From contig OX597821.1 in the NCBI GenBank assembly GCA_951406725.2, positions 48,298,001-48,362,000 on the forward strand: a stretch of DNA of 64,000 bases, given 5' to 3'. The stretch is from Octopus vulgaris (taxonomy: Eukaryota). A program made the position numbers and the translations under genes. This document shows, piece after piece, positions 14,990-58,019 of the stretch. The notes beneath the pieces were generated by a model. That model searched no databases. It was not told where the DNA came from and saw only the letters and a list, made by a program, of their open reading frames with translations. How positions within the stretch are numbered: the stretch's first letter is position 1; each line of letters begins with the position of its first letter.

Positions 14990-16149
14990 TACACAGCAAC
15001 AGTGGTGATGGTGGAGATACTGATGGTGGTAGTGTGATGATGGTAATTCTGATGCTGCTGATGATGATAATTATGACAATGACAATAAAGAAACATTATA
15101 AGCTCAAATGTTGCTAGAATGTATATCTACATTGGAACCCTCTTGTGTCTACCCAGATCAAAATCTATTTTAATAATGCTTCATATCTTATCCAACTTTA
15201 CCTCCAACCAAAGTCCACAGTAAAAAAAATGGATGTTGTAAGTCAGTAGAATGGAAAATGGAACCTCCAGTCATCTATCTTAGCTGCTGATTCAACCAAA
15301 ATTCTCCATACATCAGTGTTGAAACAATAAAAACATATGCAAACAGAAAAAAAAACTACAATATATTGTAGTTCCTAAGATATCCAATGGAAATAATAAT
15401 GGTAAAAAAATCATTAAAAAAGTGACAAAAATATATAACTTTGGAAATATTTGGAACAGAATTTCTCTAAGACATCAAAGACAAATTATTTATAAGCAAT
15501 TGCTTTTAACTTGCTGGACTTAGTAGCAATTTTTCATTATATTTCACAGAAAAGAAGAGAAAAATATTTTTAAATGTTTTAAGCTTTTAATTCTCTCTAC
15601 TTTATTATTTAATATGTCTTAAGTATATTTAATTAAAAAGAAAAATGAAAACACAAAGAAGGAGAAAACATAATCAGTAAATTTTCTAGAAAGTAATTTC
15701 TGTTTTACATTGTTTTTCTGGTATGTTTTAAAAAATTGTTTTACTTGTATCTCTGTAAATCTTTAATTAATATAATTGTAGATTAAGAATCAAACTATTG
15801 GCAAGTGAGTACTTTGATCACCATTCAGGTTTTCATGGAAGCCATTCGGTTCTATTTATGCCACCAATACTGAGAGAAATAAGCACACGCATGAACCTCA
15901 CAACATTTCCCCTCCTTATGAATCTATATAGACTTGGAGACTATCGTCGTCATCATCACCACCACTTTTGCCATAACTACATTACTACCACCACAACTAT
16001 AACCACCAACACTTCTACTATCATCATCATCATTATCACCACCACCAATATTTCTACTACTATCCTCTACTTTCTCCTCCTCTTTCTTCTCCTCCTCATC
16101 CTTATCCAGTACTAATTTCAAAATATTGTATATGTATGAATGTGTACAC

Positions 16150-16629
16150 CCAGAGATCTTTTCTCTAGACAATATGTGACCGGTGACAAGAAATAGGTTC
16201 TCTATAAAAATGGCAAGCACTGAAGACAGTGGGTTAGGAAAGAAGAAACACTGGCATCCCAAGCCAAAAAAAAGGTCTTCATCCACGCAAGGCTCAGAAT
16301 TTCTGGAACCCCATTGACACTGGCTTATGCTTATTGTCCAATCCTCATACACTGCATTAATATTCCTCACACTTCCCATTGCACTGTTGCCTTTATTGAA
16401 CTCATAAAACAAAATATGCCAAATATGCTCCTTTGTCACTTCCATTATAGCTTTGAAAAAGTAACTGTTAAAATCGAATTGCACTCTTCAAAACTTGCAC
16501 TAAGAATAAGTCCAAGGTAAAATTACTACCTGCTTTTATAGCAAGTTGATGCAGGTAGTTTATCCTGTCCACCTCTGACTTTTAGTTCATGCAATTGAAA
16601 AAAATGCATTATTCATGGGATGACCCAAT

Positions 16630-52988: not shown

Positions 52989-53219
52989 ATACACATACAT
53001 ATAAAGAGACCTAAATGCAAATTGTTATAATTGCCAATATGAGCCATTGAAAATTATACCATACATTAAGTATGGTAGTCACCATTACAGAGGTGACACT
53101 GGTAGTTTGTGGAATAAAGTGCACAAACTCATAAAATACAACTTGTGCTGAACTTATGATCACAGAATGTAGCAATCACTCTGTCCATTTGTGATGCTAC
53201 ATATGTATATATTTTTTTT

Positions 53220-53614
53220 TCTTGTTTCAGTCATTTGACTGTGGCCATGCTGGAGCACCACCTTTAGTTGAGCAACTCGACCCCGGGACTTATTCTTTGT
53301 AAGCCCAGTACTTATTCTATCGGTCTCTTTTACCAAACCGCTAAGTGACGGGGACATAAACACACCAGCATCGGTTGTCAAGCAATGCTAGGGGGACAAA
53401 CACAGACACACAAACTCACACGCACACACATATATATATATACATATATACGACGGGCTTCTTTCAGTTTCCGTCTACCAAATCCACTCACAAAGCTTTG
53501 GTCGGCCCGAGGCTATAGTAGAAGACACTTGCCCAAGGTGCCACGCAGTGAGACTGAACCCGGAACCATGTGGCTGGTAAGCAAGCTACTTACCACACAG
53601 CCACTCCTGTGCCT
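53220..53614 (-). mobile_element. SINE family A
   Basis: Highly similar to 51862-52286. Confidence 0.9.
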
Positions 53615-54753
53615 ATGTGTACACATAATACATCACATCCTGATCCATTGCATATATTTACATCCCTTCAAGTATCCAGCATATTGACACAAATTGTGAG
53701 TTATTTTATTTGTGTGATGATATGATGGATGTTTCGGGTCTGTTTCTGAAAAACATTGGAAATATTTATTGATAAAGGCTATAAGATGGTAACTGATATA
53801 ACGTGTGTGTGTGTGTGTGTCCGTGCATATGAATCAGCCTATATTTACATCTACATGTACACCTGCTTGGATAATTTTCTAGTGTGGTACCTGTTCATTC
53901 AGGTAACTTGAACAAATCTGTGAGTTTATTGTATTTGTTTGATAACTGAGCTGGAAATTGAAGAATCTGATCACACACACAAACACACACACACATACAC
54001 ACACACAAACACACACACACACATCATGGAAGTTAACTTCAAATTTCATTTGGATGAAAAAACAATAATTTCTTTGTTGTATCTGACATGTTTTTCAATT
54101 GGTTGTGTTCAACTTTGATTAGACAGAGAAAACATCAACAGTTGAACAATGATATCTTGTTGTGAAAGGGAGACCTCAATTGTGATAAACAGATTTCATG
54201 GTGATTGACCATGAGATGCTGAAGTAATGGGATATTAGCCAGATATAACACTAGTCATATCATGTGAAGCTGACTGAAAATAATACCATATTCACTTCTT
54301 ACTAGATTCAGTAGCTATTTATATAGAATCCACTTTGCTGCCTCATGTGTAATTATAATGGAGATACTGGGGGCATTTAGAAGGACTGAAGAATATCCTT
54401 AAATCACCACATCCATCAATTACATTGTTTAAAGTGACATGAATAGTTAAAATCACACATTCTTACAAAATTCTAAACAACTTTAAAATGTCTGCTTAAT
54501 TCTTTAAAATGTATTCTTTATTCATGCAGAACACATTTTTGGGTCATTAACTTGTAAGCATAATCATATTTAGCATCATTTTAGCTTTCGTCTATTACAA
54601 GGTTCCAAATAAACACACAGACACACATATGCACACATAAACAGACACACACATACACATGCACGCACACACACAAACACATATGTACTCTCAAACATAC
54701 ACAGACACATGTATAAATTCATATATATCTATATATATATCTATATATATCTA

Positions 54754-54794
<41 letters not shown>

Positions 54795-55117
54795 ATTATA
54801 ATATTAGGGAATAAATCCAAACTTACAGGGAAAAAATGAGATTTAGGATTAAATCCAATTTTATAGTATAAATATATTATATTATATTAAATATAATATT
54901 TAATATTAGTATTAATATTTGATTTGCCTAATAGTGGTTATATATATACAGTTTGTGTATCAAATAGCTAACTTAAGGCGATGGCCTCATGGAGCTAATA
55001 AGCAGACAGCTTTATTCTTATTTTTATAAGAATGCCATATTAGTATGGCGATAACTATTATTTTCCGGGAACGCTGCCGCTGTTCTCTTTTAGAGAGACT
55101 TAGTAATTTTAATATTT

Positions 55118-55165
55118 CTATTATTGAAAACAAGTGGATGTATTCCACCGAAACTAGGTAAATAA
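55118..55165 (+). ncRNA. Second, degenerate hammerhead-like motif with UUGAAAA core
   Basis: UAUUA-UUGAAAA-CAA-GUGGA-UGUAU-UCCAC-C-GAAA-CUAGG-U-A-AAUAA. Stem II is clear but the stem I register is imperfect. Confidence 0.45.
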
Positions 55166-55212
55166 AACCATCGAACAGAGATTGTCGGAAGCGACACCTA
55201 CTGGCTGGCTAC

Positions 55213-55254
55213 GCTGCATTGAAAAGGGGCAATACCCCGAAACGCGTCTGTAGC
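55213..55254 (+). ncRNA. Type I hammerhead ribozyme, U3-A8 compensatory core variant
   Basis: GCUGCA-UUGAAAA-GGGG-CAAUA-CCCC-GAAA-CGCG-U-C-UGUAGC. Stem I is 6 bp and extends via GGCUGGC/GCCGGUC and CUACU/AGUAG. Stem II is 4 G-C pairs, stem III is the palindrome ACGCGU, and the triplet is GUC. Confidence 0.85.
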
Positions 55255-55480
55255 TGCCGGTCAAGTAGTGTGGAGCGACTGACCTCCCTTGTTCGAAGGT
55301 TATATGGATACAGTTTGTGTATCAAATAGCTAACTTAAGGCGATGGCCTCATGGAGCTAATAAGCGGACAGCTTTATTCTTATTTTTATAAGAATGCCAT
55401 ATTAGTATGGCGATAACTATTATTTTCCGGGAACGCTGCCGCTGTTCTCTTTTAGAGAGACTTAGTAATTTTAATATTTC

Positions 55481-55517
<37 letters not shown>

Positions 55518-55666
55518 CACACACACACACATATATATATATATATCATCATCATCATCATATTTTAACATTTATTTTCCATGCTGGCATGGGTTGGACA
55601 ACTTGACAGGAACTAGCAAAGCCAGGGTGACATCAGGTTTCATAGTTTCTTTTGGTTTGGTTTCTA

Positions 55667-56960
55667 TGAGGGAATATCAAAAAATTCCAGGACTAGTTAT
55701 ATTTTATAAAAAATTGCTTATTTACATAAGTTTTAACATCATCATCACCTTCAAAATAGTTACCTTGTACAGCAATATATTGGTCTCAGCATCCCTGCCA
55801 CTTTTGGAATCTGTCCTGGAAGTTGTTTTCTGGAAGCAAGTCAAGGACCTTCTGCAATTCAGTCTGGATCTCAACAATGGTGTTAAAACAGTGACCTTTG
55901 AACTGTATTTTCATCTTGGAGAAGCAGTGCAAGTCCACAGGTGCTAGATCTGGTGAATAGGGTGCATGCGGAAGCAATACCATGTTGTTTTGGGTGAGAA
56001 ACTCATGAGTGAGGAGAGCTTAGTAACACGGTGCATTGTTGTCATGAAGAATCCAATTCTTCACACTCTACAGATCTAATCACTTTCACTGCATGTCCTC
56101 CCTCAAATGCTTTAAAATGCCACAGTAGAACTCTTGATTGACAGTCTGGCCCTGAGGGGATGAATTCTTGGGGCCCAATGCCACAGATGTCGAAAAAAAT
56201 TATGAGCATGCTCTTGATTGAGCGATGGGTCTGTTGTGCTTTCTTCAGTTGTGAAAATGAAGGGCTCTTCCATTGTGATGACTGCTGCTTTGCCTCAGGG
56301 TCATACTTGTTAACCCAACTCTTGTCACCGATGAAGATCCTCAATATGTAGGATAGTTTATCAGTGGCATGCTGACAGAGATCTTGACAAACTTCAACAT
56401 GATGTTCTTTCTGCTCAGTGGTCAGCATGCGGGAGACAAACTTAGCAAGGACATATTGCATATTCAGTTCAGATGTTAGGATTGCCTGCATGGAACCATA
56501 CAACAGACCAATGACATCAGCAATGTCACTGACTGTCCTTCAATGATCCTCATGCACAAGCTGATGAATTTTCTCCACATTTCCGATGGTGATGCTCGAG
56601 GCAGGTCTTCCAGATTGCTCTTCGTCTTCCAGGGATGCTCTTCCACTTTTGAAGTACCCATTGCATGTAACCCATTGTGTTGTCGCTGTAAGCTTGCTGA
56701 AGTGTGCTCAATGGCTTTGTAGCAGACTTCCCAAGTTTAATACAAAATTTCATGTTGGCACTTTGTTCCAACTTCCTATCCATGATAAAATATGTGTAAT
56801 CACAAAAACACAGATTTCACAAGATGTGAAGTAAACACAGCAATGTCACTGCACACTGCCTCATGAAGGTCACTGCTAACTCTCACTGTGCGTGCAATCG
56901 TGTGCTGCCATCTGTTGGCACACTACAGAACTAGTCTAGGAACCTTTTGATACCACCTCA
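55667..56960 (-). mobile_element. Full-length (~1.3 kb) decayed mariner (DD34D), inserted at TA in a family C element
   Basis: TIRs TGAGGGAATATCAAAAAATTCCAGGACTAGTT / AACTAGTCTAGGAACCTTTTGATACCACCTCA with TA on both sides. ORF pieces are MDRKLEQSANMKFCIKLGKSA, IFIGDKSWV..YDPE..QQSSQW and HAPYSPDLAPVD. The host family C sequence resumes (TTTC-TA-CAGCTGG). Confidence 0.92.
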
Positions 56961-57559
56961 TACAGCTGGCTGTCCTTCCCATCACCAACAACTTGGAATG
57001 GATGCTTTTTATGTGACACCAGTGCCAGTGCTTTTTACGTGGCAGTAACACTGACATGAATGCTTTAAACATGGCACCTTGGTTTTAGGATATCAATTCT
57101 GTTGTGGTGGGCAGGTCTTCTTGAGAACAGCAATGTGCCACATATCTTGGTCCTTTGTCATCTCCTCTGTGTGTGTGTGCGTGTATATGTGTGTGTGTGT
57201 GCATGCATGTGTGTGTGCATGTGTGTGCTTGTGTGTGCACGTGTATACACACACACACACATATATATATCCAAACCGATTGAGTGAATGGAACAGGCAT
57301 GACCCAGGCTATATATGTTTCCTAGCTGACAAAACCTTGGAAGTAATAATTACTCAATCTGTGATTATATCTTTCAATTCATCACTCTGAGCAATGATTG
57401 GTAGGTTTGCTCTGGCAACGTTGAAGATATTCTGCTGACATGGGCTGTGTCTCACTATAAATAGTATGACTGTTTTCCTCTTCTTTAGTTTGTCCTCAGC
57501 TGATGTATGGGGATTTTTATAGCCTACTATATGACATTTTCTATAAGTAGAGATAAATA

Positions 57560-58019
57560 TTTTTGGTTGAACAAAAATTCTGTTAGTTCTGTTAGGACAG
57601 AAAACAACAAAACTGAGTAAAATACCACAACCAAAACAGGAACATAAGTCATAAACAGAGAAAAATCCATTTTTAACATCAGGACAACAAATACCAGAGA
57701 AAGAAAAATCCAAGAGGAAACATACCCAAAACAATTGAACGTATAGATCTTAAAATCATTAATTTATTCAAAAGAGATCTTGACAATGACGAAATCCAAC
57801 TTCTGTCAAAAGGACTGAAATGTATACTTACATCAACAGTCAACCACCAAGAACTAAAGGAGGATATCCAAAAATTCTGTCGTAAGTTACAGAATTCTTC
57901 ACTAATAAAAGTAATGAGATTAATGAATCCCAAGTAAAGAATAAATCAAATTTCACCCCCACCAAAAGGAAGAAATAACTATCTTGACCAATACATTGAT
58001 ATCCTGTCAAAATTTCCCT
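57560..58019 (+). mobile_element. Penelope-like element N-terminal ORF fragment
   Basis: KIINLFKRDLDNDEIQLLSKGLKCILT...ELKEDIQKFCRKL matches the PLE pre-RT IINLS..L...E..LL.KGL.F motif. Confidence 0.72.

Follow-up and report, generated by a model that had tools for sequence, protein, structure and literature searches.

The tandem repeat on the forward strand of a 64,000-nt stretch of Octopus vulgaris DNA (the whole stretch is called the window here, and positions are counted from its first letter) raises the question of what kind of element it represents, from which template it was copied and which machinery inserted it. As originally predicted, the locus holds a 189-nt direct repeat with a 362-nt period that ends in (TA)n: the segments 54936–55124 and 55298–55486 are 98% identical and spaced by 362 nt, with three mismatches (54944, 54945, and 55004), and the target, a (TA)n microsatellite at the 3′ end, spans 55484–55546. 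The locus is one 5′-truncated copy of a non-coding 362-nt family and comprises 1.5 units, i.e., a partial unit at 54936–55124 (unit positions 174–362) and a full unit at 55125–55486 (41.7% GC), from which our unit numbering is taken (u1 = 55125, u362 = 55486). Mismatches 54944–45 are probably target DNA and not part of the unit, so the true 5′ junction may lie at 54946, with imperfect microhomology to the target; given that junction, the two window copies differ by one CpG transition over 179 nt. The 5′ end of the copy is abutted by what is left of another AT-rich repeat that likewise inserts in (TA)n (element X; 54792–54939, minus strand); this remnant lies outside the retrozyme and has a (TA)n array at its own 3′ end (54721–54791).

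The unusual CpG richness noted for the unit was recovered (17 CpG; observed/expected 1.09 vs. 0.32 for the window, the second highest among 176 bins), as was the lack of a credible ORF, the longest Met ORF read round the circular unit reaching 38 aa. ARAGORN gave no tRNA in 54000–56500. Folded as a circular monomer, the unit is predicted to be highly paired (–122.1 kcal/mol, z –6.2 against 100 shuffles), and the minus-strand circle is likewise stable (z –5.9). Of the six hairpins listed originally, the predicted circular fold contains four and lacks UGUCG/CGACA and GGAG/CUCC.

The predicted type I hammerhead occupies 55197–55271 on the plus strand. Its long stem I (55197–55218 with 55249–55271) carries a UAC bulge and is followed by the core U3-U4-G5-A6-A7-A8-A9 (55219–55225), stem II (GGGG-CAAUA-CCCC, 55226–55238), the GAAA (55239–55242) and a stem III of 2 bp inside the palindrome ACGCGU; in hammerhead numbering, self-cleavage and ligation are predicted after C17 of GUC, between 55248 and 55249 (unit 124/125). 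The well-formed architecture that had been proposed stands (z –4.0, none of 200 shuffles being equally stable), but the core sequence is UUGAAAA, in which the C3-G8 pair is replaced by its covariant U3-A8, and not CUGANGA, and the ribozyme is of the canonical and not of the minimal type. An Rfam scan of 53000–58000 returned 34 weak matches and no hammerhead at E ≤ 5, and standard searches based on CUGANGA would overlook families of this kind owing to the U3-A8 core. On the minus strand of the unit, no hammerhead core of the form CUGANGA or UUGANAA was found, other ribozyme types being covered by the Rfam screen alone.

Covariation argues for the same structure. Across 11 natural sequences from five subfamilies, 98.3% of cells are paired, compared to 24–44% in slid controls, and 6 of the 32 pairs changed on both sides, in stems I and II and in the palindrome, among them the pair that closes stem II and the centre of the palindrome (ACGCGU vs. 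ACAUGU). The structure was drawn by hand from these same, related sequences, and shuffle counts are therefore no probabilities. Between subfamilies, the core varies solely at the tolerant position 7 (N7), and it is intact in 196 of 207 units of a sample partly selected on the motif. As far as natural variation can tell, the hammerhead structure is under selection across the subfamilies, and its cleavage is predicted. A U3-A8 core is known from Cercyon Penelope-like elements (PLEs) of S. mansoni, as reported in PMC4209133, and our literature search brought up no study of cleavage rates for U3-A8 cores. As the activity of this core is a prediction here, a report that eight of nine Xenopus retrozyme dimers gave no cleavage in vitro (10.64898/2026.07.22.740005) counts against the explanation favored below.

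The expected multicopy family exists, and the locus is far from single-copy: in 2.8 Gb of genome (227 contigs), a 29-nt ribozyme word has 1126 exact matches (control 0), and as the first 100 matches fall in about 67 places, some 750 insertions carrying the word can be extrapolated. Its proposed youth applies to part of the family, because young copies occur along with older subfamilies of 77–87% identity, which keep the period near 362 and the same ends; all five subfamilies retain this period. A motif variant, AGGG-CAAAUA-CCCU, was considered as a PLE end and rejected, since it corresponds to the older retrozyme subfamilies. Arrays and arms reach up to 9.9 units, and 19 of 61 position-ordered loci have arms with at least two intact cores, hence arrays predicted to be able to release monomers. 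The window copy has one hammerhead, which makes monomer release by that copy alone impossible, and it is likely a dead end.

No PLE ORF is contiguous with a unit arm in any of 170 locus records, which overlap in part; PLE fragments lie near arms in six of the records and adjoin none. This speaks against the contrary outcome envisaged originally, namely a fixed-end terminal repeat of a coding PLE. With no RT + GIY-YIG ORF between the repeats in these 170 records, the family is not an autonomous PLE, and by genomic criteria it fits the metazoan non-LTR retrozymes. One 81% unit beside a GIY-YIG ORF (L079) was rejected as pointing to a parent PLE, the two being separated by about 500 nt of microsatellite and oriented tail to tail. 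No cephalopod retrozyme was found in the literature searched, repeat libraries being outside its scope, and the main text of the Octopus vulgaris repeat annotation (PMC13282606) contains neither “ribozyme” nor “retrozyme”; the family may have been deposited under another name.

Which machinery inserts these units can be read from their ends. Our end survey covered 61 loci in genome order, drawn from the 29-nt-word matches, with 98 arms, of which 80 face (TA)n. While variable circular permutations had been anticipated, such scatter is seen at the 5′ ends of the arms but not at their 3′ ends, 88 of which lie at two fixed sites: 43 at u290–304 (site A) and 45 at u355–4 (site B), with the other 10 elsewhere. 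TATTAT occurs in the unit at these two sites only and is mostly unpaired at both in the predicted circle. At site A, it forms unit 294–299 in a predicted loop (55418–55426, also 55056–55061), and at site B unit 357–362, the 3′ end of the window copy (55481–55486, also 55119–55124); the 60–63 nt between the sites (55424–55486) are the equivalent of the “tail” described for PLEs (PMC11167929).

Head-to-head insertions, found at 36 of the 61 loci, combine the two sites: all 29 loci with two canonical ends are A+B, the other seven having one odd end, and 24 of the 36 junctions show 1–9 nt of overlap (BLAST boundaries). A+B insertions were also found at 12 of the 20 top-scoring loci, at 13 of 20 further loci (simple A+B, besides two complex and one B+B), in 10 out of 10 head-to-head cases among 29 loci of an 81% subfamily, and in 19 of 20 entries of the end-pattern lists of one contig (C1; the remaining one B+B), which partly contain the same loci as the other sets. 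The two B+B insertions seen are rare and count against the favored explanation. Counted over the whole genome, exact B-(TA)n junctions number 1056, and A-(TA)n matches on the forward strand 433 (the reverse count is inflated by duplicates). In two complex insertions (L179, L182), short duplicated pieces at the head-to-head junction suggest repeated template switches during 5′ joining.

This A+B head-to-head pattern is the Penelope “tail” signature. The tail of PLEs is described as additional sequence that inverted insertions carry at just one of their ends (10.1101/2021.04.23.441226; PMC3846280) and has been explained by an RT that starts at two internal RNA sites while both DNA strands are cut and extended, two such start sites and extension of both strands having been described in vitro for the PAc RT (PMC11167929). 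The PAc start sites are said there to lack homology to the target, whereas both retrozyme start sites are TA-like, so that primer pairing may help in the octopus. The postulated tie to PLEs consequently gains support from the two fixed 3′ ends, the A+B pairing and the (TA)n targets.

A GIY-YIG search of the genome yielded 6136 candidates, of which 150 were scored and 50 locus records were read. Among these is a young PLE family with an intact 781-aa RT+GIY-YIG ORF and copies 95–99% identical (L091–L110, e.g., L094:744–5990). It has a C-x3-CxxC linker, a feature typical of Neptune/Nematis (10.1101/2021.04.23.441226), inserts in (TA)n and carries a minimal U3-A8 hammerhead with the core UUGAUAA. 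It too has two 3′ ends, separated by 35 nt (A in 22 cases, B in 7, read-through or other in 7), and both head-to-head copies seen are A+B. An upstream ORF of about 479 aa (stop-to-stop), a terminal repeat of about 540 nt and repeated ATTGG/TGACGTC motifs upstream were further noted. We regard this Neptune-type PLE as a candidate helper of the retrozyme. Local alignment of the unit with the terminal repeat of this one intact family scored 23–24, compared with shuffled maxima of 39–40, i.e., no similarity above shuffles, and the tails measure 35 nt in the PLE vs. 60–63 nt in the retrozyme, both of which weigh against the explanation we favor. At least four or five further PLE families (L100, L102, L082, L125, L057) share 32–62% protein identity with the young PLE; L100 and L103 carry a degenerate minimal hammerhead, and their ends in (TA)n are separated by about 30 nt.

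Other elements were observed as well. Element X, an AT-rich repeat in (TA)n with 219 candidates in the genome (loci L152–L170), shows arms in head-to-head orientation and what seem to be two 3′ ends with about 90 nt between them; it looks like another non-autonomous PLE-type element, and no hammerhead was noticed within the portion read. A Mos1/mariner transposase HTH fragment lies at 15924–16487 of the window (minus strand; Pfam HTH_48, E 2.8e-10), and 56042–56539, beside the retrozyme, appears mariner-like by eye, with no Pfam match.

Regarding the template, the 1.5-copy overlap that was originally taken as the mark of a circle is insufficient alone, since a tandem transcript yields the same overlap. 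Sequencing runs do not bear on this point either. The unit words are present at 87–100% in 20 of the 24 runs listed, under six organism labels, and a wrap-around from 55486 to 55125 appears in each of four runs, which consist of contigs only and whose RNA origin is guessed; as tandem DNA or read-through would give the same, these contigs were not used as evidence for a circle. One of the four (X4) contains a single 392-nt record (362 + 30) without flanking branches, and two runs of the same study are nearly without its words.

Comparison of units is more informative. It comprised 83 loci and was restricted to segments with an identity of 94% or more; each arm end was shortened by 6 nt, and insertions were left unscored. 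Within an arm, units diverge by 0.53% if adjacent, 0.49% if two apart and 0.38% if further apart, so that divergence does not rise with distance, while it amounts to 0.59% between opposite arms and 1.7% between different loci. Non-CpG variants that are ever fixed were fixed throughout the covering units in 140 observations and segregating in 19, and those that only segregate recur at the chance level (12 vs. 12.5 expected); one separate upstream piece was dropped from this analysis. The 27 insertions with at least two near-full units fall into 12 fixed haplotypes, and within any one insertion all units and both arms carry the same haplotype. A variant fixed in every daughter unit and in both arms implies that the daughter was copied repeatedly from a single unit.

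The cleavage site points in the same direction. Its spacing is exact in 117 + 60 = 177 junctions at loci not selected on the site, and ten other matches showed substitutions, an arm junction or unrelated sequence, with no indel seen. Copying of linear cleaved monomers is not favored, since the expected pile-up of 5′ ends at this site was not seen (3 of 98 within unit 122–128, p = 0.29; 6 of 98 within 122–132, p = 0.08). Separately, 12 of the 98 5′ ends cluster at unit 160–170 (window 55284–55294; a post hoc observation) where the long stem enclosing the ribozyme has its 3′ strand, possibly an RT pause site. Haplotype fixation, the indel-free cleavage site and the missing 5′ pile-up together favor a ligated monomer circle over linear monomers or heterogeneous multimers, and the genomic support for a circular monomer template is indirect but fairly strong. 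Against this, among 234 variants at positions for which three or more units provide coverage, 12 are present in only part of the units, and a pure monomer circle leaves them unexplained. Two alternate between units (u187 at L147 and u311 at L171), a hint of an occasional dimer template; in general, partial variants may stem from occasional dimer circles, conversion or linear templates.

We therefore consider it probable that the family is a non-coding hammerhead retrozyme whose array transcripts cut themselves to monomers, which are circularised and reverse-transcribed into (TA)n by a Neptune-type PLE protein. Arrays with at least two ribozymes would be transcribed, probably by read-through, and four T-runs in the unit argue against Pol III. 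Cleavage by the hammerheads would follow unit position 124 and probably involve dimers formed via the palindromic stem III, and a host ligase could close the 362-nt circle, by analogy with the mussel, coral and axolotl retrozymes. The PLE protein would then nick both (TA)n strands, and the two 3′ ends, one at A and one at B, would prime at the TATTAT loops at which the arms are seen to end. Each RT would circle the template for 0.1–10 turns through the ligation site and stop at scattered positions, as in the copies, before the cDNAs are linked head-to-head through short microhomology or, as in the window copy, a lone arm joins the target DNA. A more specific version, which we put forward tentatively and as somewhat less likely than its opposite, holds that one PLE protein dimer uses a single ribozyme-made circle as the true template, both nicked strands being primed at loops 63 nt apart and two RTs rolling to give palindromic A+B products. 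If true, PLE integration would have in this family a minimal natural substrate, and the insertions would document rolling-circle twin priming in the genome, the circle having stayed close to 362 nt over five subfamilies.

Alternatively, the same PLE-driven element could be copied from uncleaved linear multimers of a few homogeneous source arrays, with circles as by-products. This would agree with the report that PAc used mainly uncleaved, i.e., unprocessed, RNA in vitro and that ribozyme mutants inserted normally (PMC11167929), which counts against a ribozyme-made template; seamless read-through of the cleavage site is expected here too, and some partial and alternating variants exist. However, 12 haplotypes are each fixed throughout their arrays and within-array differences are unshared between loci, whereas a linear lineage should transmit unit-to-unit differences and cannot lengthen arrays, and we judge this option unlikely. 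It seems quite improbable that a coding PLE, so far unseen, has this unit as its terminal repeat (pLTR) and left the copies as truncated 3′ ends. Features described for pLTRs do include a hammerhead, a tail, inverted arms and (TA)n targeting (PMC8557442, preprint), Xenopus retrozymes are reported to resemble pLTRs (10.64898/2026.07.22.740005), and our GIY-YIG scoring covered 150 of 6136 candidates; but units run head-to-tail for up to 10 turns, all five subfamilies keep the period near 362, and the 170 locus records contain no contiguous PLE ORF. An ancestral origin of the unit from a pLTR is possible.

Production or homogenisation of the arrays at the DNA level, as in satellite DNA, by extrachromosomal circles, unequal crossing-over or conversion, would leave the fixed A/B ends, the A+B rule and inverted arms of one haplotype unexplained. 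Dispersal over many contigs and the fact that adjacent units are no more alike than distant ones render it very improbable as well, even though a DNA monomer circle would be a bottleneck too, variants common to adjacent units only exist at two loci (L020, L013) and a satellite route has been discussed (10.64898/2026.07.22.740005). Least credible, at a barely appreciable probability, is an endogenised viroid-like RNA with RNA-to-RNA replication, the other half of the original prediction: size, the circular fold of both strands (z –6.2 and –5.9) and the conserved length near 362 would be in line with it, but the minus strand lacks a hammerhead core, the fold is branched and not rod-like, and the family has diversified into genomic subfamilies bearing marks of PLE integration.

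Hammerhead viroids and viroid-like RNAs resemble the octopus unit in size, predicted circular fold and hammerhead. In contrast to hammerhead viroids, the octopus unit is genomic, integrated by retrotransposition and provided with a ribozyme on one strand only. Non-LTR retrozymes have units of about 170–400 nt, in dimers to multimers, a range that includes the 362-nt family. Those of metazoans are known from mussel (350–390 nt), coral and axolotl (330/350 nt), and according to the available text of PMC7229834 they share with it the short non-coding tandem unit with a GC content under 45%, the canonical type I hammerhead with palindromic helix III, the highly paired predicted circle and the presence of PLEs with minimal hammerheads in the same genome. 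Unlike them, the octopus family has a U3-A8 core, and its circle is predicted from the genome alone; that text was not found to describe insertion into (TA)n, a pair of fixed 3′ ends or A+B insertions. With the EN+ PLEs Neptune, Poseidon and Naiad, as far as these are covered in the sources at hand, it shares partial tandems, an inverted 5′-truncated arm, a tail on one end, a microsatellite target, 5′ microhomology and a hammerhead (PMC11167929; 10.1101/2021.04.23.441226; PMC3846280), but it has no ORF, a tail of 60–63 nt vs. 30–40 nt and a canonical vs. minimal hammerhead, and it did not align with the terminal repeat of the one intact PLE compared.

Vertebrate retrozymes, described as non-autonomous PLE derivatives, belong to the same class with the same proposed helper (10.64898/2026.07.22.740005). 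There, 35 genomes (31 from vertebrates, three from insects and one from an anthozoan) are reported to provide the argument, through the joint occurrence of retrozymes and PLEs and through similarity to pLTRs, whereas the octopus evidence consists of insertion anatomy and haplotype pattern; neither an A+B nor a haplotype analysis for retrozymes was found in the literature searched. PLEs have been called a “strong candidate” for retrozyme movement (PMC7229834), the mechanism of which, in the words of the recent preprint, “remains to be elucidated” (10.64898/2026.07.22.740005). In this context, the PLE two-start-site signature in nearly every copy, combined with the monomer bottleneck, ties retrozymes to the PLE machinery by mechanism, and the family supports the circle as transposition template along a PLE route so far mostly assumed. 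The 99%-conserved intact PLE in the same genome makes this mechanism directly testable in vitro. Judged by its genomic record, the octopus family is real and new within a known class, and offers unusually clear genomic evidence on how that class moves.
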